Below, piece by piece: positions 47,003-63,888 of a DNA stretch of 64,000 nt. The translations under genes and the position numbers were made by a program. The stretch lies in the NCBI GenBank assembly GCA_964387095.1, contig CAYLVH010000001.1, forward strand, positions 1,103 to 65,102, in the 5' to 3' direction. Position 1 is the stretch's first letter. Each line of letters opens with the position of its first letter. Below the pieces are notes generated by a model. The model made no database searches, was not told the origin of the DNA, and saw only the letters and a list, made by a program, of their open reading frames with translations. The stretch comes from an uncultured Oscillospiraceae bacterium (GTDB taxonomy: Bacteria > Bacillota > Clostridia > Oscillospirales > Oscillospiraceae).

Positions 47003-47005
47003 GGG

Positions 47006-47953: not shown

Positions 47954-47966
47954 GTTGTTTCCTTTA

Positions 47967-48992: not shown

Positions 48993-49008
48993 GGAATCTT
49001 CTCCTTAT

Positions 49009-50229
49009 TCAGGGGATCAGATATGCATGCAGCCGGGTGCCAGCGGGCAGACTGGGGCTGCCGCCGGGGATTTCCGCCAGCAGGTTGCAGCCAATCAGGC
49101 TGTGCAGCACGCCATTGCCTTGTCCCTGCTCCACCAGCATCCGGGCGGTGCCATCGGTCAAATCCAGCGTCCCCCGGATCAGCCGGGTTCTGGGGCTTTT
49201 TTTTGGAAAGCCCTCCTTCAGGGTCACTGTCAGCGCCGTCAGCATGGGCTCCTTCAGCCCTTGCAGCTTGCGGACCACCGGCAGGACCACCGCATAAAAA
49301 TTCGTCAGCGCGGAGGCCGGGTTGCCAGAGAGACCACAGATCAGCTTGCCTGCCCGAATCCCATAGGCGCTAGCTCCCCCGGGCTTCAGCTTCAAGGCAC
49401 GGATCAGCAGCTCCGCCCCGGCCCGCGTCATTGCCTCCGGGGTGAAATCGTAATCCCCCACGGAGACCCCTCCAGTGGTCAGCACCAGATCACAGGTGTT
49501 CAGGGCCTCATCCATTGCCGCCGCAATGGCGCCAGGGTCGTCGCCGGGGGCGCCGCATACTACGGGCTTGCAGCCCATATGCCGCAAGGCGGCAAAGAAG
49601 GTATATTGGTTGGTGTTGACAATCTTCCCTCCGGTCAGGGCCTCCCCGGCCTCCACCAGCTCGCTGCCGGTGGTCAGGATTCCCACCGTGGGGACTCCAT
49701 AGCAGAGAGGTTCCACAATCCCCTGGGCCGCCAAGGTGCCCAGCAGGGCGCTGTCAATGACCGTGCCCCTTTCCGCCATCAGCTGGCCCTTCCCCACGTC
49801 CTCCCCCCGGGGGACAATGTTCTCTCCGGGCTTGGACGGCCTGAAAATCGTCACCGTCTCCTGGGTGAAGGCGGTCTCCTCATACTTTGCAATGGCATCC
49901 GCACCCGGAGGAACCGGCGCCCCGGTGAGAATCTTTGTGGCTGTGCCAGAGGAGACCGCCTGCGTCCACATGGACCCTGCCGGTACCTCTTCCAAAATAC
50001 GCAGCGTCACAGGATTCTCCCGGCTGGCGCCCAGGGTGTCCGCCGCCCGGAAGGCATAGCCATCATAGGGGGAGCGGTCGAAGGGCGGCACATCCCCACC
50101 GGCAAACACGTCCTCCGCCAGAATGCGGCCCGCCGCTTGGAGCAGCGGCACCCGCTCCAGCCTTGTAATGGGCGCAACCTGCTCCATCAGGAGCTTTCTC
50201 GCCTCCTTATATTCCAAACCAGTCTGCAT
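49009..50229 (-). CDS. moeA: molybdopterin molybdotransferase MoeA
   Basis: 406 aa, SPYDGYAFRAAD...ILTTGSELV...LTTGGVSVGDYDF. AGGAGGAA lies upstream. Confidence 0.9.
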   Translation of the reverse strand: MQTGLEYKEARKLLMEQVAPITRLERVPLLQAAGRILAEDVFAGGDVPPFDRSPYDGYAFRAADTLGASRENPVTLRILEEVPAGSMWTQAVSSGTATKILTGAPVPPGADAIAKYEETAFTQETVTIFRPSKPGENIVPRGEDVGKGQLMAERGTVIDSALLGTLAAQGIVEPLCYGVPTVGILTTGSELVEAGEALTGGKIVNTNQYTFFAALRHMGCKPVVCGAPGDDPGAIAAAMDEALNTCDLVLTTGGVSVGDYDFTPEAMTRAGAELLIRALKLKPGGASAYGIRAGKLICGLSGNPASALTNFYAVVLPVVRKLQGLKEPMLTALTVTLKEGFPKKSPRTRLIRGTLDLTDGTARMLVEQGQGNGVLHSLIGCNLLAEIPGGSPSLPAGTRLHAYLIP

Positions 50230-50312: not shown

Positions 50313-50321
50313 TACGGTTAT

Positions 50322-50432
50322 GGCTGCTCTCCTTTTCAAAGCAGGAAGGTCAGAAGGTTTCCCCGCTGGCCCGTGGCATTCGCCAGGCCGCAGCAGCATA
50401 GGCTTCGCCCTTAGCCGCCGCAGCTCGGAGAT
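50322..50432 (-). promoter_or_regulatory. probable Moco (molybdenum cofactor) riboswitch
   Basis: On the minus strand: AUCUCCGAGC...GCGGCCUGGCGAAUGCCACGGGCCAGCGGGGAAACC...CCUGCUUUGAAAAGGAGAGC. UCUCC and GGAGA can form P1. It lies upstream of moeA-moaA-moaC, the usual context for this motif. The match is from memory of the consensus, not a covariance-model score. Confidence 0.6.
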
Positions 50433-50488
50433 ATTTTCTTCTATTTTCTTTCAGTTTACCCGATGTCCTGAAAGCGGGAAGGAACGGA

Positions 50489-51391
50489 TCAATATTCCTT
50501 CTTCAGGCAGTGGCGGGTAATCCCCAGAATTTCACGGGCCTCATCCGGGGTGGCAACCTCCCGGCCAGCCAGCTTGGTCAGCCGGACAGCCCGTTCCACC
50601 AGCCGGACATTGGTTGCGATAATCTTCTTGCCATCGGGGGTCTTGCCGAAGAGGATGTTGTCCTCCAGGCCCACCCGCAGGCCATCGCAGCCCAGGGCCA
50701 AGCCAGTCAGCATCATGGGCATGTGAGCCTTGCCAATGCCGGAAACAGACCAGGTAGCGCCGGCGGGCAGCTTGTCCACCAGGAATGCCAGGTTGCCGGG
50801 AGTGCCGGGCATCGCGCCGCCCACACCCATGATAAACTGGATGTGGGGAGGCTGGGGAATGTTATACTTCTTCACATAGTAGTTGACGGAATCGATATGG
50901 CCGGTGTCAAACACCTCAAATTCCGGCTTCACCCCGGTGCGGACCACCTCTGCCGCCAGCTTGTTCAGGAATCGGGGGGAGTTCTCAAAGATATAGCTGT
51001 TCGCCCAATTGATGGTGCCCGGATCAAAGGAGCACATTTCCGGCTTCAGCGCGTCCAGATGCTGTAGGCGCTTGTAATCCTCATACTCACCGCCGGAGGT
51101 GGTGAGATTGATCACAGGATCCAGGCCAGCCTCGGCGCAATACTTCCGGGCCAGCTCCACCGTCTCGGTGAACTTCTCCAGGGACATGGACTTGTAGTTG
51201 ACCTTCAACTCGCCGTCAACCACCTTGTCCTCACGGACATGGATGTGGACCACCGCAGCCCCCGCCTTGGTGACCGCCACGATGTCCCGGGCGATCTCCT
51301 CCGGGGTCAGGGGCACAGAGGGAGCCTGGACCTTGGTGGTGCCTGCGCCGCAGAGGCAGCATGAGATGATAACTTTATTGGTCTTAGACAT
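50489..51391 (-). CDS. BKACE-family beta-keto acid cleavage enzyme (DUF849; Kce / triacetate-lyase type)
   Basis: 300 aa, MSKTNKVIISCCLCGAGTTK...VVHIHVRED (HxH zinc site)...GLRVGLEDN, the 3-keto-5-aminohexanoate cleavage enzyme fold family. Confidence 0.8.
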   Translation of the reverse strand: MSKTNKVIISCCLCGAGTTKVQAPSVPLTPEEIARDIVAVTKAGAAVVHIHVREDKVVDGELKVNYKSMSLEKFTETVELARKYCAEAGLDPVINLTTSGGEYEDYKRLQHLDALKPEMCSFDPGTINWANSYIFENSPRFLNKLAAEVVRTGVKPEFEVFDTGHIDSVNYYVKKYNIPQPPHIQFIMGVGGAMPGTPGNLAFLVDKLPAGATWSVSGIGKAHMPMMLTGLALGCDGLRVGLEDNILFGKTPDGKKIIATNVRLVERAVRLTKLAGREVATPDEAREILGITRHCLKKEY

Positions 51392-51456: not shown

Positions 51457-52710
51457 TTATTCACACATTTCAATGACAGTTGCCTGGCCCATGCCGCCTG
51501 CGATGCACAGGGTGGCCAGGCCATATTTCAGCCCCCGGCGGCGCATTTCATACATCAGGGTAACCAGAATCCGGCAACCGGAGGAGCCAACGGGATGACC
51601 CAGGGCCACAGCGCCGCCGTTGACGTTGATGATATCCATCTGGTCCTCCCAGCCCAGCTGCTTGATGCAGCCCAGGGACTGGGCGGCAAAGGCCTCGTTC
51701 AGCTCGATGAGCTGAATATCGTCCATGGTCAGGCCGGCGTTTTTCAGCGCCTTGGGCACCGCGTAAACAGGGCCAAGTCCCATGGTCCGGGGATCGCAGC
51801 CAGCGGTGCCCATGCCGATGATCTTGCAGATGGGCTTCAGGCCCAGCTCCGCGGCCAACTCCTCCGCCATCATCAGGACAGCGGACGCTCCGTCGTTGCG
51901 GCCGGAGGAGGAGGCGGCGGTGACGGTCCCGGTCAGCTCACTGCTGTTCCAGATGCGGCCCTGTTCGTCATGGGTGATGTTGAAGCAGGGCTTCAGCTTT
52001 GCCATCTTCTCAGCGCTGGTATCGCGCTTGGGGAACTCGTCGGTGTCAAACACCAGGGGAGGCTTCTTCTTGCCCTGGGGGACAATCACCGGGACAATCT
52101 CCTCCTTAAAGCGGCCCGCGTCAATGGCGGCAATAGCCTTGCGCTGGGATTCCAGAGAGAAGGCGTCCTGCTCCTCCCGGGTGATGCCCAGGCTTTCCGC
52201 GATGTTCTCCGCAGTGGCCCCCATATTATAGCGGCCGTATATCTCCTGGGGCTGGGAGCGGAACTGACCCTCGGTGACGGCGTCTACGAACTCCGTATTG
52301 CCGGTGCCAACCCCCCAGCGGGCATTGCGGACATAGAACACGGCGTTGGACATGGACTCGGTGCCGCCTGCCAGGACGCAGTCGGACAAGCCGGTCATGA
52401 TCTGCATGGCGCCGTTGTGAACAGCGGTCATGGCGGAAGCGCACTGGCGCATAACGGTATGTGCGGAGGCAGAAGCGGGAATGCCCACCTTCAGAGCGGC
52501 TATCCGGGCGATATTGGGTTCGTCAGAGGTCTGCCGGCACTGGCCCATAATGACCTCATCGATCACAGCGGGGTCCACCTTGCTGCGATCCAGAATCCCC
52601 TGCATGACCGCGCAGGCCAGATCGTAGGCGGACAGGGGCCGCAAAGCGCCGCCGAATTTGCCCACAGCGGTGCGGCAGCCCTCAACAATTACAACATTTC
52701 TGGTTTCCAT
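51457..52710 (-). CDS. acetyl-CoA C-acetyltransferase (thiolase II-like)
   Basis: ORF track 51457..52734; the start is ATG 52710 (METRNVVIVEGCRTAVGKFGG). It has the active-site Cys region MRQCASAM, NVNGGAVALGHPVG and CIAGGMG. Confidence 0.88.
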   Translation of the reverse strand: METRNVVIVEGCRTAVGKFGGALRPLSAYDLACAVMQGILDRSKVDPAVIDEVIMGQCRQTSDEPNIARIAALKVGIPASASAHTVMRQCASAMTAVHNGAMQIMTGLSDCVLAGGTESMSNAVFYVRNARWGVGTGNTEFVDAVTEGQFRSQPQEIYGRYNMGATAENIAESLGITREEQDAFSLESQRKAIAAIDAGRFKEEIVPVIVPQGKKKPPLVFDTDEFPKRDTSAEKMAKLKPCFNITHDEQGRIWNSSELTGTVTAASSSGRNDGASAVLMMAEELAAELGLKPICKIIGMGTAGCDPRTMGLGPVYAVPKALKNAGLTMDDIQLIELNEAFAAQSLGCIKQLGWEDQMDIINVNGGAVALGHPVGSSGCRILVTLMYEMRRRGLKYGLATLCIAGGMGQATVIEMCE

Positions 52711-52803
52711 GTGATGAAATCCATCCTTTCCCATTGAGATTCCGTTTTCATCAATTTCCTTTGCAGGGGCAACTACCCTGTAAAGAGATGTCAGTCATAA
52801 TCT

Positions 52804-52840: not shown

Positions 52841-53710
52841 TTAGGCCTGTTCCAGGTAGGTGATGCCCACATAATGGTCATGGTCGGTGCGCTCACCAGT
52901 ATAGACCACGGGCTTGAAACCAGGATACGTGATTTCCACCGTCCAGGACTTGCCCTTGGGCAGGTCCTCAAACTCATAATCCCCTGCCCAATTGGTTTCC
53001 GTCTCATACATGGTGCCGCACTCTTCACAGGTAATCTTGACCTTGGCCCCAATGCAGACCTCTTCCAGCTCCTTGGGATAGGCAACGGTGCCGGCCAGGA
53101 ACGTGGAGGGGATGTTCAGATGGACCACGCTGGAGCCTTCGTCGCCCAGACACTCCAGCTGAGTGACCTTATTGGCGGCGATCAGCTTGGAAATCTCACT
53201 GTCGGGATCCGCCAGGTCGCCAAAGACCAGGGCCTGGTTGGGACATGCCTCCACGCAGCGGGGCTCAAAGCCGGGATAGTCAGGATCGTCTAAAAGCTCC
53301 GCGCACATGGTACACTTCTGGGGGATCTGCTCCTCCTCATTCCAGAACACGGCACCAACGGGACATGCATCCACAATCTGCTTCTGACCCTTGGACTTCT
53401 CCGGGTCGATGATGACAATGCCATCCGGGCGCTTATAAACCGCGCCGTCCTTGGCGACCGCCATGCAGGCGGGGTGATCGCAATGGGAGCAGGGCGTGGG
53501 GACGGTGGCCGTCTTGATGCGGCGCTCATTGTCTCCCCGCTCCCACTCAATAATATTCATCCAATACTGGTCCAGTTCGGGCTGAGACTTTGTCAGCGCG
53601 GAATCCCAGCCGCAATGCTCATCCTTGCAGGCCATAAAACATGCATAGCAAGCCATGCACCGCGCGGAATTGATGGCGATGCCGGGCTTCTTCATGGGTT
53701 TTTTCATCAT
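52841..53710 (-). CDS. 4Fe-4S subunit (beta-1) of a pyrogallol-transhydroxylase-like molybdoenzyme, with C-terminal Ig/carboxypeptidase-regulatory-like domain
   Basis: 289 aa with the Cys groups CMACYACFMAC, CSHCDHPAC, CPVGAVFWNEEEQIPQKCTMCAELLDD and CVEACP, and a C-terminal beta-rich domain (GAKVKITCEE...YEFEDLPKGKSWTVE). Confidence 0.8.
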   Translation of the reverse strand: MMKKPMKKPGIAINSARCMACYACFMACKDEHCGWDSALTKSQPELDQYWMNIIEWERGDNERRIKTATVPTPCSHCDHPACMAVAKDGAVYKRPDGIVIIDPEKSKGQKQIVDACPVGAVFWNEEEQIPQKCTMCAELLDDPDYPGFEPRCVEACPNQALVFGDLADPDSEISKLIAANKVTQLECLGDEGSSVVHLNIPSTFLAGTVAYPKELEEVCIGAKVKITCEECGTMYETETNWAGDYEFEDLPKGKSWTVEITYPGFKPVVYTGERTDHDHYVGITYLEQA

Positions 53711-53725
53711 AGTTACATTCCCTCC

Positions 53726-56440
53726 TTAGAGTCCGTTCTCGCCCCAGAGCAGGTCAGCCTGGGCAGAGGTGCGAATCGGGCGTCCGATTTCCAGCTGCTG
53801 CTTGTCAACAGCATCCAGAATGTGCTCGAAGCCTTGGCCATAGTTGGGATCAGGCTCGCACTTTTCTATATCAATATTGCAGCTGTACGGAGCCATAGCG
53901 GGAACATACTCACCAATCAGGCGCCCGGGGGTCAGCAGGTTGATACTGCCGCCCTTATCCCAGCTCTTATACTCACCGTACTGAATGGGATTATAAATGC
54001 CGGAGGAGGTATACGCATGGATGGTTTCAGGGTTCACACGATAGGTTACACGGGCAACCATCAGGCAGCTGCCCCGGTCATTGAATAGGCGGACAACGTC
54101 ACCGTCCTTGATGCCCTTCATCTCCGCGATCTTGTGGTTAATATGACAGACCAGGTAGGGGTTGCCATTGATAATGACACGGTTCTTGGGGATCTCCCAC
54201 AGCCACTTGGCGTGCTGATTATAATGGGTGTGATAATCGAAGCGGGGATGGGGGGAGATCAGGCCGAAGGGATACTTATCTGCGGACAGGGACTTGAAGC
54301 CCTCCCAGGAATCCTGATACTGGGGGATGGGACGGCGGGCTTCGTCATCCGGCGCCCAGTAGGTGATGGACTCAGAGACAAACTCGAACTTGCCCGAGAA
54401 GGTGCCCAGCATGCACTCCTCCTGGAACGGCTTGTGGTTCATGGTGTCGCAGGGGCGGTTCTCAGCAAACCACTGGAAGCCGGGATACCGGTCCCAATTC
54501 TCATACAGGCCGGTCTTAGGATCCTTATTCTCCTCCTTATAGGAGACAGGCGGGATGTAATAACCCTTCTTCTTGAAGTCCTCCCAGGAAATGTGCTTGG
54601 GCAGGTCGGAGAACTGCCAGAAGCGCTTTGCCCACTGCTCCTCATCCCGGCCTTCGGTGAAGCGCTCGCCCCAGCCCAGACGCGCCGCCACCTGGGAGAA
54701 GATCCAGAAGTCAGAGCGGGAATCCCACATTGGCTCAATGGCCTTATCCTGGTAGACAATGATCTGCCAGGAGTTGCCGGTCTGGGAGTGGGAGCAATAA
54801 CCGCCGTTGCCGGAGTTGCCCACTTCACCGATGTCTATGCGCTCCAGGTTGGAGCAGGCAGGCAGGATCACATCCGCGTGACGGGTCTCGGGAGTCATAT
54901 AGATGTCCTGGTTGATGACAAATTCCAGCTCCGGGCTCTTATACATCTTCACCCACTTATTGGTGTCCAGCATGGTGCCCAAGAAGGAACCGCCGTAACG
55001 CCAGAAGCAGTGAACCTTGTTATAGCCGGGCGCGGGATAGACATGGCGGGTAAACTCCAGGTCCACACCGCCGCCGCAGAAGCCCTCGCCGTACCACTCA
55101 TAGTGGCCGTCGAGAATCGCGTCAGGCAAATTGGGACGATAGAGGACCTGCTCAACCGGGTTCACCGGCACATCGTCACAGATGGGAGCGCCAGCGATGG
55201 AGCTAAGGGGATCGGAATAGCCGCCGAACCAGAAGTTATAGTTCATGGGGCCACCGCAGGCGGGGGACCAGAAGGCGCGGCCGGGCTTGCCCATGCCCTG
55301 CATGGCAAAGAGCAGGGTCATCAGGCGGGCATACTCAGTGCCGTTGGAATGACGGCAGGCGCCGCCGAAGCCGCCGCGCATGCCGGAACCGCCGGTGGTG
55401 ACGGTTTTCGCCCAGCGGCGGGCGATGGCCTTGATATCCATGGCGGGAACCAGGGACAGTTCTTCTGCCCACTTGGGCGTCTTTGGCGTGCCGTCCGGGC
55501 CCAGGCCCAGGATGTGGTTCTTAAACTCCTCAAAGCGGTGGCCATGCTGTGCCACATACTCTTTATCGTACAGATCCTCGGTGATCCACACATAGGCAAT
55601 GGCTTCCAGGATGGCAGCGTCGGTGCCCATCCGGGGGCCGATCCACTTGTCGGCATGCTTCACAGAGGTATAGTTGTTGAAGGGGTCGATATAGATGAAT
55701 TCAATGCCCATCTCCTTCATCCACCAGCGCCACAGGGCAGACTCCTGGGCGGAGTAGCCGCCCCGGGTGGTATCCGGGTCCGTGGACCAGCAGATGATGG
55801 TTTCCGTATTCTGCATGGCCATTTCCAGCATATCATAGGGCTCCGGACCGCCCAGGCGCCAATAGTAGCCGTAGGAGTGGGGGGTGCCCCAGTGGAAACC
55901 CTCCCAGGAGTCCGGGTTATCCGCGACGCGGGTATACCCCATCATGGAGAAGAAGCGCTTAAACAGGGAGATCTTGTAGCCCACCAGGCCCCAGGAATGG
56001 TGGGAGGAGGTACAGGCGGTAATGGTCTCCTTGCCATAGGTCTTATGCAGGCGCTTGATCTCACGGGCCACCAGGCTCAGCGCCTCGTCCCAGGTAGCCC
56101 GGCGATAGCCGGACTTGCCCCGGTTTTCCGTGTTGCGGTTCTTACCGTCGGGGGTCTCCACGAAGTCCTCCCGAATCATGGGGTACTTCAGGCGGTCATA
56201 TGCGTAGGTCTTATCCCGCTCGCAGTAGCCCAACAGGGACATGGTGGTCTTGCGCTGGGGGGTGTACTCCTTGCCCCGGGCCTTGATGACCCAGCCGGCA
56301 GGATCGTCGTCCGTCAGGACAATGGGGCGAACGCGGCGAATGACACCGTCAATGGTATGTAGGGTCATGGGGCCGCCGACGCACACACTGTGGGTGATAC
56401 GTTCTCTCTTGCTATCGGAACGCCTGGCTATTTTATCCAT
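53726..56440 (-). CDS. molybdopterin (bis-MGD) oxidoreductase large subunit alpha-1, pyrogallol hydroxytransferase-like, cytoplasmic
   Basis: 904 aa with no twin-arginine signal and no N-terminal Fe-S Cys motif. The blocks CTSSHHSWG, DSWEGFHWG, WSTDPDTT, GTPKTPKWAEE, GGACRHSNG and GMGKPG match my recollection of the Pelobacter transhydroxylase family. Confidence 0.8.
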   Translation of the reverse strand: MDKIARRSDSKRERITHSVCVGGPMTLHTIDGVIRRVRPIVLTDDDPAGWVIKARGKEYTPQRKTTMSLLGYCERDKTYAYDRLKYPMIREDFVETPDGKNRNTENRGKSGYRRATWDEALSLVAREIKRLHKTYGKETITACTSSHHSWGLVGYKISLFKRFFSMMGYTRVADNPDSWEGFHWGTPHSYGYYWRLGGPEPYDMLEMAMQNTETIICWSTDPDTTRGGYSAQESALWRWWMKEMGIEFIYIDPFNNYTSVKHADKWIGPRMGTDAAILEAIAYVWITEDLYDKEYVAQHGHRFEEFKNHILGLGPDGTPKTPKWAEELSLVPAMDIKAIARRWAKTVTTGGSGMRGGFGGACRHSNGTEYARLMTLLFAMQGMGKPGRAFWSPACGGPMNYNFWFGGYSDPLSSIAGAPICDDVPVNPVEQVLYRPNLPDAILDGHYEWYGEGFCGGGVDLEFTRHVYPAPGYNKVHCFWRYGGSFLGTMLDTNKWVKMYKSPELEFVINQDIYMTPETRHADVILPACSNLERIDIGEVGNSGNGGYCSHSQTGNSWQIIVYQDKAIEPMWDSRSDFWIFSQVAARLGWGERFTEGRDEEQWAKRFWQFSDLPKHISWEDFKKKGYYIPPVSYKEENKDPKTGLYENWDRYPGFQWFAENRPCDTMNHKPFQEECMLGTFSGKFEFVSESITYWAPDDEARRPIPQYQDSWEGFKSLSADKYPFGLISPHPRFDYHTHYNQHAKWLWEIPKNRVIINGNPYLVCHINHKIAEMKGIKDGDVVRLFNDRGSCLMVARVTYRVNPETIHAYTSSGIYNPIQYGEYKSWDKGGSINLLTPGRLIGEYVPAMAPYSCNIDIEKCEPDPNYGQGFEHILDAVDKQQLEIGRPIRTSAQADLLWGENGL

Positions 56441-56455
56441 ATTGCGTGTTCCTCC

Positions 56456-56977
56456 TTAATCCACTTCAATCATCTGACGGGCATACTCGGACCGGGGATC
56501 AATCTCCACCATATTGCCCACATATTTGCCGTCCTTGCGCTCAAAGCAGCGCATATCAAAGTCCTCAATGACGGGAATCCAGAACACACGGCCGTCAGGT
56601 CCCTGATAGTGCTTGCCCAGGTGGTACTGATGCAGCAGCAGATCCTGGGTGCCGCCAGGGACATCGAAGGTCTTCCGGGCCTCGGCATAGTGCAAATTCA
56701 GGAAGCTAGGATCCACAACCCCATAGCGCTCAAACCGCATAGGTCCGATGTTCTTCCAGTCATCCTTCAGGGAGTTAAAGGTCTCCACAATGACATCATA
56801 TACATCGGTGCCGGGCATGCCGCAGCCCTCAAAGCCCTCGTACCAGACACGGAAGGCGCACATATGCTCGCTGGGATGGTCCTTCAGGATGTCCTTCACA
56901 CGCTGAACCAGCTCGTCCTTCTCCATGGTGACAAGTCCCTCCGGAAGATGGAGCACATATTTTTTAACCAGATCCAT
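56456..56977 (-). CDS. hypothetical protein (173 aa), co-operonic with alpha-1
   Basis: GGAGGAAGA lies 5 nt before the ATG, and its stop is 15 nt before the alpha-1 start. No domain recognised. Confidence 0.65.
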   Translation of the reverse strand: MDLVKKYVLHLPEGLVTMEKDELVQRVKDILKDHPSEHMCAFRVWYEGFEGCGMPGTDVYDVIVETFNSLKDDWKNIGPMRFERYGVVDPSFLNLHYAEARKTFDVPGGTQDLLLHQYHLGKHYQGPDGRVFWIPVIEDFDMRCFERKDGKYVGNMVEIDPRSEYARQMIEVD

Positions 56978-56989
56978 CGTTCTTCCTCC

Positions 56990-57289
56990 TTATCGAATCA
57001 CATGGTTGCCCACCAGGTCGCCCAGTTCCTCGGTGCGACCGCTCTTGCGGGCATCGCCATAGCCATAGCTCCAGTCCCCCGGCAGGTCGTAAATGGCGAC
57101 GCACTTGGCCTCGCCAAGCGCAACGCCGGTGCCGTAATATTCCTTCTGCAGCTGCTCCTGAGCCAAGACCTTGGCCTCGTTCTCGTCTTCCGCACAAACA
57201 GTAGCTTTAGCGGTGGCGCAGAACACATATTTCGGCTCCGTGGGCTTTTCCAGCTGCTTTTTGGCAGCTTCAAAAACATACTTCTTCAT
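56990..57289 (-). CDS. hypothetical protein (99 aa)
   Basis: AGGAGG lies 10 nt before the ATG, with 12-nt and 15-nt gaps to its neighbours. Two other overlapping minus-strand frames in the track lack an RBS. Confidence 0.6.
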   Translation of the reverse strand: MKKYVFEAAKKQLEKPTEPKYVFCATAKATVCAEDENEAKVLAQEQLQKEYYGTGVALGEAKCVAIYDLPGDWSYGYGDARKSGRTEELGDLVGNHVIR

Positions 57290-57304
57290 TTGGACCCCGC
57301 CTCC

Positions 57305-57769
57305 TTAGTACATTCTGCTGTCCGGGATCTCACGGCCGTTGATCCAGGGATCATACTTGGCCATGAAGCTCTGATCGTCGCCCTCAAAGCCATACTGGCC
57401 CAGCTCAGAGGGATGGACCCACTTGAACTCGGAATAGATCTCACTCTTGGGTTCCGCCTGCCACTTGCGCACCGCCTCATAGTAACAGTGGTAATCGCAC
57501 TTGGTATGGGTATTGTGGGTGATATTGCCACACATGATATGTTCAACATAGCCGTCTTCCGGCTTCTTATGCCCAATGGTAATCAGCTTGCCGGCGGTCA
57601 CCTTCAGGCCCAGCTGCTCCCAGGCAAGGCGCTCCACCGCTTCCTGCTCCGTCTCACTGGTGTGGACGTGGTCATGGGGAAACTCCCAAACGCCGTTCTG
57701 GTTTTTTCCAATCAGCACATCCCCCGTGGGGCCCGCGTGGTGCTGGATCAAGGCAGAAATATAAATCAT
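57305..57769 (-). CDS. Nudix-fold protein with degenerate Nudix box (154 aa)
   Basis: GVWEFPHDHVHTSETEQEAVERLAWEQLGL aligns with the MutT box Gx5Ex7REUxEExGU, but REL.EE has become RLAWEQ and the leading Gly is Asp. The sequence is rich in His and Cys. Confidence 0.6.
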   Translation of the reverse strand: MIYISALIQHHAGPTGDVLIGKNQNGVWEFPHDHVHTSETEQEAVERLAWEQLGLKVTAGKLITIGHKKPEDGYVEHIMCGNITHNTHTKCDYHCYYEAVRKWQAEPKSEIYSEFKWVHPSELGQYGFEGDDQSFMAKYDPWINGREIPDSRMY

Positions 57770-57796
57770 ACAGGATACACCTTCTTCCCCATCCGA

Positions 57797-57994
57797 TTAC
57801 AGTGTGTATTGATGCTCTTCAAGCTGGTAGCCCTCCGCTTCCAGCTGAGCGCCAACCCGTTCACGGAACTGCCGGACAGTCTCCTGCCGCACGTCCCGGT
57901 CAATTCTCTTCACCTCTACGCCGTCTTCGCAGACGCTGGCCCACTCGGTAAAACCGCCGCGGGTACTCCGACATACAAATTTATAGGTTTTCAA
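57797..57994 (-). CDS. hypothetical protein (65 aa), TTG start
   Basis: AAGGAGGA lies 6 nt before TTG 57994, and the start is 3 nt from the upstream stop. No domain recognised. Confidence 0.55.
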   Translation of the reverse strand: MKTYKFVCRSTRGGFTEWASVCEDGVEVKRIDRDVRQETVRQFRERVGAQLEAEGYQLEEHQYTL

Positions 57995-57997
57995 GGT

Positions 57998-58462
57998 TTA
58001 TCCTCCTTCACTTTCACGATCTTTGGGTGCGTCCTTCCAGCTCATAAAGTCAGTATCCTCCGCAGGAAGCTGTCCCGTGGCGTCCAGATACGCGATAATG
58101 CCCTTTTCCGCCGCAACCATGACCCCCATGGGATTCATGTTCTGCTTCGGCGTGATCTCAAACAGCTGATCCGCCTGCTTCGCCAGGTTCTTCAGCATGG
58201 CGGTATGCTTTTCATTGATGGGCCAGGCCTTATATCTCCCCTCTTCCGCATCCAGGGGATGGATAAAGCACTGATACGCGTTCTGGGCAATGAACATATA
58301 CATAATCTCCATTTCCGACAGCACACCCACCATTTTCGCGCTATTTAGAGCAAGCATAATCTTGTCTCCATCCTTCGCCATAAGCCGGAGGCGAACATCC
58401 CGGTCGTGGTTGGCCCGGTCCGTCCGCTTGCGGCTGTCTCCTGGTTTTCTCTTTTCACTCAT
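57998..58462 (-). CDS. hypothetical protein (up to 154 aa; start uncertain)
   Basis: It is the first ORF of the unit. ATG 58462 has a poor RBS, whereas the internal ATG 58357 (MLALNSAK...) follows AAGGATGGAG with 8-nt spacing. If the long form is used, the N-terminus is basic. Confidence 0.5.
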   Translation of the reverse strand: MSEKRKPGDSRKRTDRANHDRDVRLRLMAKDGDKIMLALNSAKMVGVLSEMEIMYMFIAQNAYQCFIHPLDAEEGRYKAWPINEKHTAMLKNLAKQADQLFEITPKQNMNPMGVMVAAEKGIIAYLDATGQLPAEDTDFMSWKDAPKDRESEGG

Positions 58463-58656
58463 CTCTCGATCTTAACACCTCGTCTCCAGCTTCCGAACTG
58501 CTAAATGGGCACACTACACCCCATTAACACCATTTTATTTTAAACCATAGAACGATTCCAATGTCAATTGGATTTTCCTGTAAAAAAGCGTAACCATTCC
58601 GACACGAAAAAACCGAAAATTTAAAAATTCGTCTATTTTCAAGGGCTTCTCCTTTT

Positions 58657-58682
58657 TTGTCACAACCAATGGGTTGTGACAA
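58657..58682. promoter_or_regulatory. palindrome TTGTCACAACC-AATG-GGTTGTGACAA upstream of the first molybdoenzyme unit (copy A)
   Basis: It has perfect 11-bp arms preceded by T6. A 20-nt core, TGTCACAACCAATGGGTTGT, is identical to copy B at 63264-63283. Confidence 0.6.
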
Positions 58683-58835
58683 GGTGACATTTCTCTGTTT
58701 CCAGGCCGCGCTTAACCAGGGGAGGTTCAGGTCAAAAAAGATTCCATATTTTTGACCTTAGGGACAAAACCGGATTTTCCCTGGAAGCCAATCAGCACAC
58801 CCCTGCGGAGAACCTTGGCAGGGGACTTTTGCCGG

Positions 58836-59495
58836 TTATTGCTTTGCTTCCTCCAGCGCGCTGAACAGGGGGGCCATCTTAATTTTCGGGAACAGCCGCT
58901 GGGACAGACCCACAAAGCGGCCGGTAAGCAGCACCGCCGCAACGGAGCTGATGCCCACGCTGGCCAGGGAATGCGTGGAAATCAAATTGATGACAATTGC
59001 CAGCACCACATAGACCGCATCCATAATCATCTTCACATTGGACAGCTTCTTGTGGTAGACTTGGCTGATCACGTTGTTCAGCTCGTCCGGCGCCGGGAGC
59101 ATCAGGTCGCAGCCGCTGATCAGCGCCACGCCAAGGCCCTGGATGGCAATCCCGAGAATTAATACAATACACTTTTGCCAGATCGCCAGCTGGGGATTCC
59201 AAAGCCACATGAAGAAATCCACCAGATAGCCAAAGGGGACTCCCACACATAAGGTGAGCACGCTTTTCAGCGCCACCCTGCGCTGCACCAGGATCTGCGC
59301 CACCGCGCAGATGACATGCAGCAAAATGGTGGCGTTCCCCAGCGTCAGCGGGGTGATATTCGCCACAGCATCCGGCACAGCGGTGATGGGCGACACGCCC
59401 CAGGCCGTTCGCTTGAGCATAACCAGCCCAATGGCCATGCAGACAATTCCCGCCACATATTGTGTAATTCTTCTTACCACCTGTTTTGATTTCAT
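58836..59495 (-). CDS. YczE/YitT-like polytopic membrane protein (candidate transporter)
   Basis: ORF track 58836..59513; the start is ATG 59495 (MKSKQVV) after AAGAGG. It has 5-6 helices and a GVSPITAVPD motif reminiscent of COG2364 proteins. Confidence 0.55.
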   Translation of the reverse strand: MKSKQVVRRITQYVAGIVCMAIGLVMLKRTAWGVSPITAVPDAVANITPLTLGNATILLHVICAVAQILVQRRVALKSVLTLCVGVPFGYLVDFFMWLWNPQLAIWQKCIVLILGIAIQGLGVALISGCDLMLPAPDELNNVISQVYHKKLSNVKMIMDAVYVVLAIVINLISTHSLASVGISSVAAVLLTGRFVGLSQRLFPKIKMAPLFSALEEAKQ

Positions 59496-59547
59496 GTTCT
59501 GACCTCTTTTCAAGCCGTCTCCCGGCGGCCAGGATTCTTATATACCA

Positions 59548-60360
59548 TTATTTTTCCAGGGGAATGTCCCCCAGGTTGGGACAGCTCTTGGTCTCCAGCT
59601 CCTCAAAGCTCCGGGGCTGAAAGCCCGAGGCCTGGATGGTGACTTTTGCCCTGGTCTCCAGCAGATCCTTGAACCAAAAATCACCGAAGTCATCCGTGGT
59701 GGTCTCCCTTGTGGTCCCATCAACCAGGGTGAGCGTGACCTTGGCCCCGATGATGACTTCCTCCTCCTCCGGATCATAGACCAGCCCCCCCAGGAAGCAG
59801 CCGGGAATATTCCGGTAATAGACCCGGGGCCTGGCGCCGTACTCCGGATGGAGCACCACCGCATCCTTGAGTAGGTCGGCCAGCTCCTCCTCATCGCCAA
59901 ATTTCATGGCGTCGGTGGGGCAGGCCTCCACACAGCGGGGCACCTTGGCGCCATGATCCAACAGGTGGGCACAGCCAGTGCACTTCTGTGGCAGGTTCAG
60001 CTCCTCATTCCAGAAGATCTTGCCATAGGAGCAGGCCTCCACCAGGCCTTTCTGCCCCAGGGCCTTCTCCGGGTCAATGACCACCAGGCCATCCGGGCGG
60101 CGATAGACGGCGCCATTCTCTGCGGCGGCCATGCAGGGCGCATCCTCGCAGTGGTTGCACAGGGTGAGGATGTAATGGATCTTCACCTTGGGGATGGTGC
60201 CCCTGGGGTGATCGGTGACCTTGCACCAGAACTGACCCGTGGCGGGTTGGGGCGCCGCATAGGGCCGCCAATCGTTTTCACAATGCTCATCCTTGCAGGA
60301 GAGCTGACAGTTGTAGCAGCCGGAACACCGGGCCACATCAATGACAAACACCTTAGACAT
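59548..60360 (-). CDS. 4Fe-4S subunit (beta-2) of a second pyrogallol-transhydroxylase-like enzyme
   Basis: 270 aa, MSKVFVIDVARCSGCYNCQLSCKDEH, CNHCEDAPC, CSYGKIFWNEELNLPQKCTGCAHLLD, CVEACP, PRVYYRNIP, then an Ig-like tail (GAKVTLTLVDG...FGDFWFKDL). Confidence 0.85.
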   Translation of the reverse strand: MSKVFVIDVARCSGCYNCQLSCKDEHCENDWRPYAAPQPATGQFWCKVTDHPRGTIPKVKIHYILTLCNHCEDAPCMAAAENGAVYRRPDGLVVIDPEKALGQKGLVEACSYGKIFWNEELNLPQKCTGCAHLLDHGAKVPRCVEACPTDAMKFGDEEELADLLKDAVVLHPEYGARPRVYYRNIPGCFLGGLVYDPEEEEVIIGAKVTLTLVDGTTRETTTDDFGDFWFKDLLETRAKVTIQASGFQPRSFEELETKSCPNLGDIPLEK

Positions 60361-60363
60361 TGC

Positions 60364-63186
60364 TCAGATCTCCTTTCCAGGCACATGGGGCTGTCTGGAG
60401 CCCAACCAGACCCCTGCCTTTTCCTTCTGGCAGCGGACGCCGTCGGTGGGATCCTCATCCTGCTCCTCATCCACCAGCCAGCCGGCCAGGCAGACCCCGG
60501 CGTTGGGATCCGTCTTCCGGTTCCAGGCCTGGGCATACTTGGTGGACCATTCCTGATACTCTTCCTCCGTCACCTTCTGGCACTCCACCAGGAAGCCGGA
60601 AACCGCCATGCCGGTGGAGTTTTTGGAGGTCATAGAGGTGGGGGTGATGCAGTTGATGCAGCCGCCCCGGTCCAGCCAGCCGGGAATAATGGGGTCCAGG
60701 CGGGCACCGTGATCCACATAGACCACACCAGGGATCAGCCGCTCCGTGACATAGGCCGCGCAGAGTACAATGCCCCGCTCGTTGAAAATTTTGACGATAT
60801 CGTGGTGCTGAATCCCCCGCTCCTTCGCGGTGATGGGGTTGATCCACATGGGTTCGTACTGATAGCCGTCCCAGGCCCGGATCTTCATGGTTTCAACCTC
60901 CCGGTTCCAGATGATATCATCGCACTGGGCGTGCATTCTCCAGCGACCGTGGTTGGACATGCAAAGCAGGGGATATTTCTTGGCCCGCTCTGAGGAGAGC
61001 CGCTCGTCATGGCTCTCGCTCTTCTCGATCCAGTGGGGCACAGGGGGGCGTTCCGGGTCGTCGGGCATGTACTTCTCAATATCCGTGGAGGAATACTCCA
61101 GCAGACCGGTGGGGGTGGTCAGGGGGTGGTTTTGGGGATCCACATAGAAGTTATACAGGCCGGCAGGAATCTCCCGGGCATTCTCCTTGCAGGGCACCAC
61201 AAAGATCTTCCGCCGCTGGAACTCCTCCCAGCTCATATAATCCTCACAGCCAGAGGCGGCGTAGAAGAACCGCACCCGGTCCTCCTCGGTCAGCCCGTTG
61301 CCGGTGTAAGCCCGGACATACTCCGGACCCAGCTTCTCCGCCACCTTGACGCAGACGTCAAAGTCGGTCATGGACTCCCCGATGGGCGGGCAGCAGGGGC
61401 CGGTCAGATACACGGACTGGAACACACCAGAGCTCAGGTCGTTGCACAGGTCGCTCATCTCATGCTTGGTGGAAACGGGTAGGATCAGGTCAGCAAAATA
61501 GCAGTCGTTTTCCATCCAGGGATGCTGGGCGATGACGGTTTCAATGGAGGGATCCCGGTAGGCCTCAGTGAACAGGTTTCCGTTGTTCCAGCAGGTCACG
61601 TTGCAGGGGGAGTCCGTCCAGATCATATGGACCCGACTCAAGCCCGGCCTGGGGTAAACAATCTTGTTAAACTGATAGATGTTGGTGGGCTGGCGGTAGT
61701 TGTTCTTGTCCGGCTGCTGAGAGGAGGAGAAGCAGTGGAGGCCGTACCACTCCGCATGGCCCTCCACAATGGCGCGATGTACCATGCAGCGGGGAATAAA
61801 CTGCTTGGGGGCAGGCAGCTTCTTAAACAGCTCTACCAGCTCCGGGGCCTTCTCCTTCTGGTAATCGTTCAGGTCATAGCGGCGCATGTCAAGGGTGTCC
61901 GGCAGGTCCCCGTCCACCGCCCGGAGGCAGTCGCAGATCTGAGGCACCTTGGGAGCGAAGTCCCCCTGATAGGGTACCGGGAAATCCTTTGCCCACATAT
62001 TCCACTCAATCATCTTCCCCTGGTGGACGCCGGGACGGCCCAGGCCCTGCATCCCCAGCAGCATGACCTCCAAACGGGCAGGCTCCGTGGCATATGGCCC
62101 CCGGATATAGCATCCGCCGTTGCCGTGGAGGATGGAGGTGGTCTTCTTCGCCCAGCGGCGGGCCAGGGCCTTGATGGTCCAGGGCTTTACGCCGCACTTC
62201 TCACTGGCCCACTTGGGGGTCTTGGGGACGCCGTCCTCCTCCCCCATGACGTAGGCCACAAACTTGTCAAAGCCATAGGTGTGGGAGGCGATATACTCCT
62301 TGTCGTAGGTCTCCTCCGTCAGCCAGATGTAAGCAATGGCCAGCTGCAAGGCCGCGTCCGTATTGGGCAGAATGGGAATCCACTTGTCCGCATGGACCGC
62401 CGCGCCATAGTTCAGGTCGGGACAGATATAGATGCTATCAATCCCCAGGTCAGTAAACCAGTAGCACAGACGGGAGGGCATGTGGGAAACCACCCCCAGG
62501 GGGGTGGTCTCCGGATCGCAGCCCCAGAAAAGGAGCATATCCGTGTTCTTTGCGATGTCCGGGTACAGGTTGGCCGTGGGGGCCATCTCCCCCACAGGCT
62601 CCATGCCCCAGACGTGCTTGGCCCCCCAATACCAGCCCTCCCAGGAGTCCATGTTCCTCATCTGGAGGGTATAGCCCCCCATCAGGGCCAGCAGGCGGTT
62701 GGGGCAGCCGTGGCTGGGGGCCACCCGCTTGCCTTCGCCGTGCATATCGCTTTCGCAGAGCACCGCCTCGGGGCCGTAGGTCTCCTTCATCCTCCGCAGC
62801 TCGTCCGCGCAGATCCGGGCCGCCTCATCCCAGGAGATCCGGACATATTTGCTCTTCCCCCGGTTCTGGGGATTGCGCTCCCCCTTGGGGTCCCAGTCCA
62901 CCCGCTTTAAGGGATATTTCACCCGGTTTGGGGAATAGACCCGGCTCTTATAGCCCAGGCCCAGGGGGGTGATCGTCACCCGGTCCGGGGGCACAAAGGT
63001 CTGCCCCCTGGCCTCGATCTTCCAGGGGTGGCAGTTGGCGTCTGTATACTCTTTATCGTAGAAGTAGGGGCGAATGCGGGTGATCCTCCCCTCATTGGAA
63101 TCCACCATGCAAGGGCCACCGCTCTCCGGGCCCATGAGACTAAAGGACACTACGTTTTGCTGATCTGGTGTAAACTTGTCAGACAT
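60364..63186 (-). CDS. molybdopterin oxidoreductase large subunit alpha-2, pyrogallol hydroxytransferase-like, cytoplasmic
   Basis: Only 940 aa of the 1157-aa track ORF are plausible: ATG 63186 (MSDKFTPDQQ) follows AGGGGGA. The blocks HPWKIEARGQTFVPP, DSWEGWYWG, FWGCDPETT, GVPKTPKWASE and GMQGLGRPG are present. There is no Tat signal, and it is about 45% identical to alpha-1 by eye. Confidence 0.85.
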   Translation of the reverse strand: MSDKFTPDQQNVVSFSLMGPESGGPCMVDSNEGRITRIRPYFYDKEYTDANCHPWKIEARGQTFVPPDRVTITPLGLGYKSRVYSPNRVKYPLKRVDWDPKGERNPQNRGKSKYVRISWDEAARICADELRRMKETYGPEAVLCESDMHGEGKRVAPSHGCPNRLLALMGGYTLQMRNMDSWEGWYWGAKHVWGMEPVGEMAPTANLYPDIAKNTDMLLFWGCDPETTPLGVVSHMPSRLCYWFTDLGIDSIYICPDLNYGAAVHADKWIPILPNTDAALQLAIAYIWLTEETYDKEYIASHTYGFDKFVAYVMGEEDGVPKTPKWASEKCGVKPWTIKALARRWAKKTTSILHGNGGCYIRGPYATEPARLEVMLLGMQGLGRPGVHQGKMIEWNMWAKDFPVPYQGDFAPKVPQICDCLRAVDGDLPDTLDMRRYDLNDYQKEKAPELVELFKKLPAPKQFIPRCMVHRAIVEGHAEWYGLHCFSSSQQPDKNNYRQPTNIYQFNKIVYPRPGLSRVHMIWTDSPCNVTCWNNGNLFTEAYRDPSIETVIAQHPWMENDCYFADLILPVSTKHEMSDLCNDLSSGVFQSVYLTGPCCPPIGESMTDFDVCVKVAEKLGPEYVRAYTGNGLTEEDRVRFFYAASGCEDYMSWEEFQRRKIFVVPCKENAREIPAGLYNFYVDPQNHPLTTPTGLLEYSSTDIEKYMPDDPERPPVPHWIEKSESHDERLSSERAKKYPLLCMSNHGRWRMHAQCDDIIWNREVETMKIRAWDGYQYEPMWINPITAKERGIQHHDIVKIFNERGIVLCAAYVTERLIPGVVYVDHGARLDPIIPGWLDRGGCINCITPTSMTSKNSTGMAVSGFLVECQKVTEEEYQEWSTKYAQAWNRKTDPNAGVCLAGWLVDEEQDEDPTDGVRCQKEKAGVWLGSRQPHVPGKEI

Positions 63187-63217: not shown

Positions 63218-63246
63218 ATTATATCAAAACGAGCCAAAACTTTGAA
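63218..63246 (-). promoter_or_regulatory. promoter TTCAAA-17-TATAAT for the alpha-2 unit
   Basis: On the minus strand TTCAAA is at 63246-63241 and TATAAT at 63223-63218. Palindrome copy B starts 17 nt upstream of the -35 box. Confidence 0.55.
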
Positions 63247-63435: not shown

Positions 63436-63468
63436 GATTTTAGATTGCAACAAAGGAGGCCGCCACTT

Positions 63469-63888
63469 ATGATTTCCGAAACCCTCATTGACGTCCGTTA
63501 CCCCGACTGTGACCGGATGGGCATTGTCCACCACGCCGTTTACCCCATCTGGTATGAGGCCGCCCGCATGGACTTCTTCCAGAAGATGGGCTTCTCCTAC
63601 TCCGATATGAACAACCTTGGCATTAACCCGCCCCTGGTGGCCCTGGATTTGCGGTACAACACCCCCGCCACCTACCCCGGTCAGGTCTCTATCAAAACCA
63701 AAATAAAGTCCTACGCCCCCAAGAAGCTGGAGCTGGTCTATGAAGCCTGGTATCAGGGAAAGCTTTGCGGCACAGCCCGTTCCTTCCACATCTGGACCGG
63801 CCCGGACATGAAGAGCCTGGACATGCAGGCCACACACCCGGAGGTCTATGAGAAGATCCGGGCCGCCTGGGAAGGGGAAGAAGCATGA
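63469..63888 (+). CDS. YbgC/4HBT-type acyl-CoA thioesterase
   Basis: ORF track 63445..63888; ATG 63469 follows AAAGGAGG. VRYPDCDRMGIVHHAVYPIWYEAARMDFF is the 4HBT-I signature, including the catalytic Asp. Confidence 0.8.
   Translation: MISETLIDVRYPDCDRMGIVHHAVYPIWYEAARMDFFQKMGFSYSDMNNLGINPPLVALDLRYNTPATYPGQVSIKTKIKSYAPKKLELVYEAWYQGKLCGTARSFHIWTGPDMKSLDMQATHPEVYEKIRAAWEGEEA

Follow-up and report, generated by a model that had tools for sequence, protein, structure and literature searches.

The closest described relative of the genes considered here is the pyrogallol-phloroglucinol transhydroxylase (TH) of Pelobacter acidigallici, AthL/BthL (EC 1.97.1.2; UniProt P80563; PDB 4V4C, 4V4D, and 4V4E). 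A second member of the same superfamily, the resorcinol hydroxylase RhLS of Azoarcus (Aromatoleum) anaerobius (UniProt A0N0U2; large subunit RhL), is a cytoplasmic, water-dependent hydroxylase that feeds the oxidative hydroxyhydroquinone pathway of a nitrate reducer (PMC10100899). Phloroglucinol itself is degraded in Clostridium scatologenes by enzymes of the SDR (PGR), cyclase (DPGC), 3HCDH (TfD), and BKACE (triacetate acetoacetate-lyase, TAL) families (Zhou et al. 2023, PMC10470551). To our knowledge, that paper does not report transhydroxylase genes in the cluster; in it, Eubacterium oxidoreducens is credited (through its ref. 21) with a pyrogallol-phloroglucinol isomerase activity known from biochemistry. 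Here we compare with these systems a 64,000-nucleotide stretch of DNA (the window) from an uncultured Oscillospiraceae bacterium (contig CAYLVH010000001.1), which carries two diverged alpha/beta gene pairs of TH architecture. An original prediction, made from the letters of the window alone, had read both pairs as one candidate cytoplasmic system for trihydroxybenzenes, acting by hydroxyl transfer or related non-redox chemistry. Our analysis upholds the cytoplasmic location as a prediction and, for alpha-1/beta-1, supports hydroxyl transfer as an inference: this pair is probably a pyrogallol-type transhydroxylase yielding phloroglucinol. The second pair, alpha-2/beta-2, may act in a related way, transferring a hydroxyl on another isomer or on a substrate with substituents and feeding the same route, an assignment that we make tentatively.

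Two alpha/beta pairs of transhydroxylase architecture

The genes of interest belong to a minus-strand run that spans 45.5-63.9 kb of the window, in a genome of 58% GC. From upstream to downstream, the order is alpha-2, beta-2, a DUF6198 gene, a 373-nt gap, hyp154, a 65-aa open reading frame (ORF), a NUDIX gene, hyp99, hyp173, alpha-1, beta-1, a thiolase gene, a BKACE gene, a molybdenum cofactor (Moco) riboswitch, moeA, a MoCF-domain gene, moaA, moaC, mog/moaB, and a MOSC gene. Two transcription units, both on the minus strand, probably contain the alpha/beta pairs. The four subunit genes are as follows (bis-MGD, bis-molybdopterin guanine dinucleotide; the clades are defined below).

60364..63186, minus strand: alpha-2, clade B AhtL-like bis-MGD large subunit, 940 aa, with no signal peptide and no N-terminal Fe-S motif
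59548..60360, minus strand: beta-2, Fe-S small subunit, 270 aa, with 12 cluster Cys and a CarboxypepD_reg-like C-terminal beta domain (Pfam Fer4_11 and PF13620)
53726..56440, minus strand: alpha-1, clade A AhtL-like bis-MGD large subunit, 904 aa, the probable catalytic subunit of a pyrogallol-phloroglucinol transhydroxylase
52841..53710, minus strand: beta-1, Fe-S small subunit, 289 aa, with 12 cluster Cys and a C-terminal beta domain (Pfam Fer4_11 and PF13620)

Both pairs lie where the original prediction had placed them, all on the minus strand, and match the TH subunits over their full length. Against the TH large subunit (4v4c_A), alpha-1 scored 700 bits (E 3e-209, residues 14-864; runner-up, a dimethyl sulfoxide (DMSO) reductase at 231 bits), and alpha-2 scored 451 bits (E 5e-134, residues 18-878; runner-up, 239 bits). 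The corresponding BLASTP identities to TH were 42% and 34%, and PF21423, the AhtL-like first domain, is precomputed on all close homologues of both proteins. Assignments to acetylene hydratase, catechol dehydroxylase, DmsA, and TorA were rejected, as these reached at most 240 bits compared with 450-700 for TH, and the NCBIfam matches fell far under their cut-offs. Outside TH, the nearest solved relatives are the type III DMSO/trimethylamine N-oxide (TMAO) reductases (DorA, TorA, BisC), which share the Ser-ligated bis-MGD and the absence of an N-terminal Fe-S cluster; however, they score about 230 bits against 450-700 for TH, are below NCBIfam cut-offs, and are monomeric, mostly periplasmic enzymes with no Fe-S small subunit.

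For both small subunits the best match was that of TH, 4v4c_B (150 bits for beta-1, 185 bits for beta-2), with all Cys aligned. Each has three Cys groups (4 + 4 + 4 Cys), bearing out the predicted ferredoxin-type arrangement: 12 of 12 Cys are kept and a CarboxypepD_reg-type domain ends both betas. The beta-2 motifs named in advance, PRVYYRNIP, GAKVTL, and FGDFWFKDL, are all present as well. The beta-2 start is described as overlapping the alpha-2 stop (listed coordinates 60360 and 60364). While the two betas are 44% identical, the two alphas share 31% identity, below the approximately 45% that had been estimated by eye; this divergence, together with the different substrate loops discussed later, agrees with the view that they are old paralogues. 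Orthologues of alpha-2 at 60-91% identity occur in Oscillospiraceae, Family XIII, and Peptococcaceae.

Reading of the N-termini revealed neither a CxxCxxxC motif nor a twin-arginine translocation (Tat) signal in either alpha; alpha-1 does contain an 'RR', followed by polar residues instead of a hydrophobic stretch. None of 352 relatives of alpha-1, alpha-2, and TH carries a Tat signal or an N-terminal Fe-S motif; the original prediction was correct on this point, and both alpha/beta enzymes are predicted to be cytoplasmic. The start of alpha-2 is the ATG at 63186, with a GGGGGA ribosome-binding site in front. Extension of its N-terminus through a 1157-aa ORF was rejected because the extra part is antisense to a thioesterase gene and the ribosome-binding site precedes the ATG at 63186. 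At the other end, alpha-2 and the rest of clade B run about 40-60 residues past the end of TH, with a conserved GVCL.GWL motif (window 60364-60540); alpha-2 itself ends in an extra acidic, then basic, tail that is missing in most orthologues.

In sum of architecture, the window enzymes resemble AthL/BthL in their two subunits, AhtL-like first domain, S175/H144/D174/W176 set (TH numbering), and lack of a Tat signal or N-terminal Fe-S cluster, and their betas resemble BthL, in which the C-terminal beta domain is seven-stranded, in having three [4Fe-4S] sites and such a domain. Unlike AthL, alpha-1 belongs to another clade A subclade, preceded by four or five small conserved genes, and alpha-2 falls in its own clade, set apart by C249, a conserved tail at the C-terminus, and a loop that is rebuilt over 145-154.

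Clades and active-site residues

A neighbor-joining tree of 107 large subunits from fetched loci, together with TH as reconstructed over residues 6-870, contained a deep two-way split between clade A (TH, the Holophaga foetida copies, and alpha-1) and clade B (alpha-2). Members of clade B are 49-91% identical to alpha-2, but only 30-38% identical to clade A. When 50%-identity representatives were used to build a wider tree, clade B fell among many uncharacterized relatives that bear twin-arginine signals together with linkers rich in Thr and Val; neither is encoded by those clade B genes that adjoin clade A genes. Dozens of the alpha-2-related representatives (P0243-P0277 and others) have such a signal (SRRDFL...), in many cases with a long Thr/Val-rich linker behind it; this points to a large, uncharacterized, and putatively exported branch of the AhtL-like superfamily.

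We compared residues, in TH numbering, across 118 alpha-1 relatives, 114 alpha-2 relatives, and 120 TH relatives; the numbering was checked against 4v4c_A. All three groups show essentially no variation at H144, D174, S175 (the Mo ligand), and W176, which both alpha-1 and alpha-2 keep. Alpha-1 also keeps H145, W147, Y152, K153, Y404, and Y560, and its relatives have H145, W147, G148, Y152, R/K153, Y404, and Y560 in common with those of TH. Position 153 is Lys in 118/118 alpha-1 relatives, Arg in TH, Tyr in RhL, and Ser in alpha-2. The alpha-2 relatives have G145, G147, K148, P152, and S153, with an invariant H154 and C249, such that the substrate loop at 144-154, HH.WG...Y[R/K] in clade A, becomes HG.GK...PSH in 114/114 of them. 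We take H145, W147, Y152, R153, Y404, and Y560 to be the TH pocket residues for substrate and co-substrate, roles reportedly assigned to them in the 2004 crystal structure paper. The original prediction had looked to the Mo-ligand and pocket residues: the Mo-Ser/Asp/His core is found in both alphas, while the pocket set H145, W147, Y152, R153 is present in alpha-1 (with K for R153) but not in alpha-2, with its rebuilt loop. Because H144, D174, S175, and W176 are invariant and the clade B loop is uniform, clade B has kept the catalytic core while the adjoining loop was rebuilt and then frozen.

These comparisons bear on whether the two pairs are simply redundant isozymes of one pyrogallol-phloroglucinol transhydroxylase. 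Their common architecture, Mo ligand, acid/base residues, and genomic neighborhood are consistent with redundancy; however, the low identity between the alphas, the strictly kept loop signature of each clade (more than 110 sequences each), and the retention of the two next to each other in several phyla, as would be expected of roles that do not overlap, make it very unlikely.

Clade A includes RhL, of which the first 400 residues only were compared, as taken from a published data set (PMC7327174). Over these residues, RhL was 58% identical to TH, 45% to alpha-1, 40% to alpha-2, and 63% to both P0282 and the second, RhL-like alpha of locus L033 (L numbers denote related loci in other genomes), the context of which contained no recognizable hydroxyhydroquinone pathway. 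By its sequence, clade B is not of the RhL type, because the RhL fragment carries the clade A loop, HH.WG...Y with Y153, and is closer to TH. The original prediction had considered that the best homology might lie with a different subfamily; the best full-length solved match proved to be TH for both alphas, but alpha-1 is nearly as close to RhL as to TH (45% and 47%, respectively, over the first approximately 365 residues). Such near-equidistance, as well as the presence in the alpha-1 subclade of extra conserved partners (hyp154 and hyp173) that are absent from the Pelobacter locus, might be expected if alpha-1/beta-1 were a resorcinol-hydroxylase-like or other clade A enzyme instead of a transhydroxylase. 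We regard this as highly improbable, given that position 153 is Tyr in RhL but Arg in TH and Lys in every alpha-1 relative, that phloroglucinol-pathway genes repeatedly flank the alpha-1 subclade, and that the host belongs to a fermenter lineage, with no oxidative hydroxyhydroquinone pathway of the RhLS kind seen in the window. A transhydroxylase function for alpha-1/beta-1 is favored because the pocket is retained, the residue at 153 is basic, and genes for terminal pathway steps adjoin it.

Phloroglucinol-pathway context

The two genes directly downstream of beta-1 are those that tie the locus to phloroglucinol.

51457..52734, minus strand: acetyl-CoA C-acetyltransferase (thiolase; TIGR01930, 454 bits), which would cleave acetoacetyl-CoA arising from the lyase step
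50489..51391, minus strand: BKACE-family enzyme, probable TAL (Pfam BKACE, 279 bits; under the lysine Kce equivalog cut-off)

The thiolase is 80% identical to that of L062, from a Lachnospiraceae metagenome-assembled genome (MAG), and the BKACE protein is 77% and 74% identical to those of L062 and L012, respectively, both of which lie within complete phloroglucinol-pathway clusters. The order in these two clusters is B-alpha, B-beta, A-alpha, A-beta, thiolase, SDR, regulator, cyclase, 3HCDH, and BKACE, followed in L062 only by PTA and AckA. In L090, both pairs are flanked on one side by BKACE/thiolase and on the other by genes for a cyclase, a 3HCDH, a CoA transferase, and transporters. PGR/DPGC/TfD-family genes adjoin in L006, L012, L016, L062, and L090, and homologues of the pathway genes lie beside clade A genes in at least 10 others, those of Dehalococcoidales and Sporomusa among them. 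The slot held here by the alpha-2 module is filled in L006, the closest GTDB genome, by cyclase and 3HCDH genes. Compared with the PGR-DPGC-TfD-TAL cluster of C. scatologenes (PMC10470551), the BKACE and thiolase of the window would account for the last two steps, lyase and thiolysis, and L012, L062, and L090 have all four families. A connection to trihydroxybenzene catabolism had been predicted, and it is supported both by these adjoining orthologues of terminal phloroglucinol steps and by the related loci that join the pairs to SDR/cyclase/3HCDH/BKACE genes; beta-keto-acid cleavage is represented by a single BKACE gene and not, as the prediction had it, by several.

The same context bears on whether alpha-2/beta-2 is instead a redox enzyme, i.e., a reductive dehydroxylase or a water-dependent hydroxylase with the beta-2 clusters linking it to ferredoxin or flavodoxin. 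Such an enzyme might convert pyrogallol or hydroxyhydroquinone to resorcinol, or tetrahydroxybenzene to phloroglucinol. Beta-2 retains 12/12 cluster Cys, and clade B differs over 145-154 (including R153) and in the Y560 region, which presumably help to hold the TH substrate or co-substrate. In the rumen, gallate and pyrogallol are reported to give resorcinol, and we know of no enzyme assigned to that step. Clade B is also nested, in the wider tree, among Tat-bearing, respiratory-looking relatives, and redox chemistry is within the scope of the fold, given that RhL, a relative in clade A, acts as a true hydroxylase (PMC10100899). Nevertheless, we consider a redox role for alpha-2/beta-2 unlikely: (i) no gene for an electron-transfer partner or membrane anchor adjoins the pair in the window, L003-L005, L089, or L090; (ii) the Fe-S clusters are equally kept in TH, the net reaction of which is non-redox; and (iii) the recurrent siting beside phloroglucinol genes suggests that the product enters that pathway, as resorcinol does not.

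Co-occurrence of clade A and clade B pairs

The best protein matches to alpha-1 (95% identity) and alpha-2 (91%) are both metagenomic, and the named matches are Oscillospiraceae MAGs; among the matches listed, the nearest loci are from uncultured rumen or gut Oscillospiraceae, with a cattle RUG genome and samples from roe deer and red deer among them. The 'Clostridium-type' host of the original prediction is not supported, the organism being an uncultured rumen/gut Oscillospiraceae of 58% GC. A scan of species-representative genomes yielded at least 593 loci of the AhtL-like family, indicating that it is very widespread. We counted the pairings in 80 species-representative loci, of which 32 are at least 18 kb long and one is without a countable alpha gene.

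All 80 loci: A + B, 17; A + A, 7; A alone, 55
The 32 loci of at least 18 kb: A + B, 11; A + A, 4; A alone, 17

The A + B loci are found in Oscillospiraceae, Lachnospiraceae/Parasporobacterium, Dehalococcoidia, Actinomycetes, and Desulfospira, and therefore in at least four phyla (Bacillota, Chloroflexota, Actinomycetota, and Desulfobacterota). When loci were seeded with clade B, clade A adjoined in 4/6, and one of the other two has clade A elsewhere on the same chromosome (L005/L019). Four AhtL-like large-subunit genes (one of clade A type, three of B type) stand in a row with three small subunits in L091 (4073-17212), in a genome of 3 Mb, a pattern that suggests substrate diversification. Two clade A pairs lie in tandem, with no B, in L079 (Holophaga foetida), L033, L076, and L082; a doubled transhydroxylase-like locus is common even in the absence of clade B.

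The alpha-1 and alpha-2 modules are separable units that have been joined repeatedly, as the alpha-2 block is missing in L001 and L002 and is divergently placed in L009. In the latter, the alpha-2/beta-2/DUF6198 block (window 58874-63186) has 82% nucleotide identity and is divergent to the alpha-1 module. A gallate decarboxylase gene lies near the single pair of the Pelobacter-type locus, whereas the window has two pairs and no decarboxylase.

A further possibility is that alpha-2/beta-2 makes or regenerates 1,2,3,5-tetrahydroxybenzene for alpha-1/beta-1, the two forming one isomerase system. We know of no established in vivo source of the TH co-substrate, and A and B pairs adjoin in many phyla, with B usually directly upstream of A. 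A helper role of this kind is nonetheless improbable, since a clade B neighbor is missing from most clade A loci (as in the Pelobacter-type genome, the 95% identical relative, and 17/32 long loci), L005 and L089 have clade B by itself, and the three tandem clade B copies in L091 look like diversification of substrates.

Accessory genes, cofactor supply, and other features

Around the two pairs, the following features were annotated.

63445..63888, plus strand: 4HBT-fold acyl-CoA thioesterase (Pfam 4HBT_2), divergent from alpha-2
63218..63246, minus strand: promoter-like site upstream of alpha-2, TTCAAA-17-TG-TATAAT (10/12 matches, extended -10; weak evidence)
58836..59513, minus strand: DUF6198/YczE-like polytopic membrane protein, 225 aa (Pfam DUF6198, 2.8e-12), a candidate substrate transporter
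57998..58462, minus strand: hyp154, first gene of the alpha-1 module, with no Pfam or NCBIfam family
57797..57994, minus strand: 65-aa ORF between hyp154 and the NUDIX gene, matched in length and position by an ORF in each of L001-L004
57305..57769, minus strand: NUDIX hydrolase-like protein, 154 aa (Pfam NUDIX, 6e-8), kept in 11 related loci
56990..57289, minus strand: hyp99, with no family match, present in 11 related loci
56456..56977, minus strand: hyp173, directly upstream of alpha-1, with 20 invariant columns over 14 homologues
50313..50442, minus strand: Moco riboswitch aptamer (Rfam RF01055, 70.2 bits versus a gathering threshold of 36; model positions 1-135), 83 nt upstream of moeA
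45548..50229, minus strand: Moco biosynthesis operon, with moeA, a MoCF-domain gene, moaA, moaC, mog/moaB, and a MOSC gene (Pfam, NCBIfam)

The DUF6198 protein travels with alpha-2/beta-2, and a 79% identical copy is found downstream of beta-2 in L009. The alpha-2 and alpha-1 modules are separated by a non-coding gap (58463-58835, 373 nt) that contains two weak promoter-like sites. On the far side of the gap, the cassette of small proteins (hyp154, the 65-aa ORF, NUDIX, hyp99, and hyp173; window 56456-58462, minus strand) always precedes the alpha-1 subclade, and is positioned elsewhere at 7982-9985 of L001, 5894-6764 of L090, and 8933-9700 of L021. Homologues of hyp154 are found upstream of clade A genes in 17 loci, including those of Sporomusa silvacetica and L090, and homologues of hyp154 and hyp173 reach Sporomusa and Peptococcaceae; the Pelobacter TH locus has none of the cassette genes. 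Cluster look-ups of the hyp154, hyp99, and hyp173 homologues returned no informative names, although one UniRef entry calls the Sporomusa hyp154 homologue a 'DNA-binding protein'. For hyp173, there was no Pfam match among the 14 homologues scanned and no PDB profile match, and the single-sequence AlphaFold2 model (pLDDT 41.6) was unusable. The cassette proteins could be extra subunits, Moco-insertion chaperones, or regulators; hyp173 in particular could be an extra subunit or an assembly factor.

The same Moco operon follows the BKACE gene in L001, L002, L007, and L010. Of the surroundings originally described, the moeA-to-MOSC genes, the riboswitch, and the membrane protein were confirmed, but no mobB was detected in the window. 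A thioesterase 60% identical to that of the window adjoins a clade A small subunit in an independent cluster (L090, 1676-2152), and the enzyme may belong to the pathway, for example by freeing acetoacetate from acetoacetyl-CoA.

The remaining genes of the window are housekeeping genes, along with two for enoate-reductase-like flavoenzymes. The latter (709-2802 and 17922-19898, both plus strand) are Oxidored_FMN + Pyr_redox_2 proteins of 2,4-dienoyl-CoA/enoate reductase architecture. Gut Clostridia reduce cinnamates and flavonoids with enzymes of the enoate-reductase type and, by analogy, these two may be further polyphenol-metabolism genes. Two T-box leaders of about 104 bits each were also found (9906-10156, minus strand, and 15229-15478, plus strand); one leads an Asp/Asn-type class II tRNA synthetase gene, the other an asparagine synthase gene.

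Proposed pathway

From the homology, residues, gene order, and recurrence described above, we infer the following reactions, substrates, and operons. The first unit, from hyp154 to the BKACE gene, would encode a cytoplasmic clade A enzyme that binds a trihydroxybenzene, most likely pyrogallol, at a Ser-ligated Mo-bis-MGD. Alpha-1/beta-1 would shift one hydroxyl, with tetrahydroxybenzene as co-substrate as in the Pelobacter enzyme, to give phloroglucinol. This product would be reduced and ring-opened by PGR, DPGC, and TfD encoded outside the window, and the BKACE enzyme, acting as TAL, and the thiolase would complete the conversion to acetyl-CoA. The second unit (alpha-2, beta-2, and DUF6198) would provide a second cytoplasmic enzyme, from the ancient clade B lineage, with the same metal ligand and acid/base residues but a rebuilt loop. 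Alpha-2/beta-2 would transfer a hydroxyl of a different substrate, or with different regiochemistry, to a product that enters the same phloroglucinol route, and the DUF6198 membrane protein may import its substrate. The cofactor would be supplied by the Moco-riboswitch-controlled operon directly downstream.

Candidate substrates of alpha-2/beta-2 are hydroxyhydroquinone, a tetrahydroxybenzene isomer, and a substituted pyrogallol. Pelobacter massiliensis reportedly performs sequential transhydroxylations, and it is for this reason that hydroxyhydroquinone is considered; the organism needs more than one regiospecific transfer, a role that would suit a second enzyme. Both P. massiliensis and E. 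oxidoreducens live by anaerobic fermentation and make phloroglucinol from isomeric trihydroxybenzenes through transfer of hydroxyls; we know of no genes assigned to these activities.

On balance, we lean toward the two-unit explanation as a whole, in which an alpha-1 isomerase and an alpha-2 second hydroxyl transferase feed the phloroglucinol pathway. A number of observations weigh against it. The window contains no PGR, DPGC, or TfD homologue (tblastn with the L062 and L012 copies, E 1e-5), in which respect it differs from the C. scatologenes cluster. The alpha-2 module is absent at the gap position from L001 and L002, the nearest relatives (alpha-1 95% identical), and a genome with a 96% identical Pelobacter TH has a single pair, with no second within 10 kb and a gallate decarboxylase gene 8 kb away; clade B is therefore not needed for TH function. 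Clade A already holds at least two different reactions, and alpha-1 is close to equidistant from the enzymes for both, so homology alone cannot name its function and pocket residues and gene context must decide. As for alpha-2/beta-2, the fully kept Fe-S clusters are compatible with a redox as well as a non-redox role, and the clade B equivalents of Y404 and Y560 differed between two alignments and were not relied on. Finally, the trees are neighbor-joining trees without bootstrap support, and promoter-like and terminator sites in the region were no more common than expected by chance in our scan.

Significance

Although the system was originally supposed not to be characterized genetically in this lineage, the phloroglucinol pathway has been characterized since 2023 (PMC10470551) and clade A homologues have been annotated as pgthAB; the statement still holds for the alpha-2 lineage and the small accessory genes. 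A 2025 metagenome study labels such genes simply pgthAB (PMC12203004), a 2023 survey lumps the whole group as one 'RhL/PgtL' family, and our full-text literature searches returned no paper that distinguishes or characterizes clade B. Alpha-1 is of a known kind, and the novelty lies in the alpha-2 lineage, its recurrent pairing with clade A, and the conserved small accessory genes. It is conceivable, and we offer this with somewhat more reserve than the assignment of alpha-2/beta-2 itself, that clade B is an undescribed type of molybdoenzyme with its own substrate or regiochemistry, such as a hydroxyhydroquinone/tetrahydroxybenzene transhydroxylase or a reductive polyphenol dehydroxylase. Paired with a clade A transhydroxylase, it would form a system of two enzymes that shuffles hydroxyls ahead of the phloroglucinol pathway and is conserved across rumen Clostridia, Dehalococcoidia, Actinomycetes, and Desulfobacterota; it would also represent the cytoplasmic tip of a large Tat-exported radiation that is wholly uncharacterized.

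Where tannins and flavonoids are degraded without oxygen, in rumen, gut, peat, and sediments, the route leads via phloroglucinol. Genes for the phloroglucinol steps were assigned only in 2023, and the upstream hydroxyl-shifting step rests on a single studied enzyme, that of Pelobacter. Many anaerobes carry, next to a TH-like enzyme, a second and anciently separated enzyme of the same fold with a different substrate loop. Knowledge of the clade B substrate would (i) show which polyphenol isomers funnel into short-chain fatty acids, (ii) improve the annotation of metagenomes, in which both types are now labeled 'molybdopterin oxidoreductase', 'TMAO reductase', or pgthA, and (iii) make the sequential transhydroxylations, known from biochemical work of the early 1990s, accessible to genetics. 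It would also be relevant to the mitigation of rumen methane with phloroglucinol and tannins.

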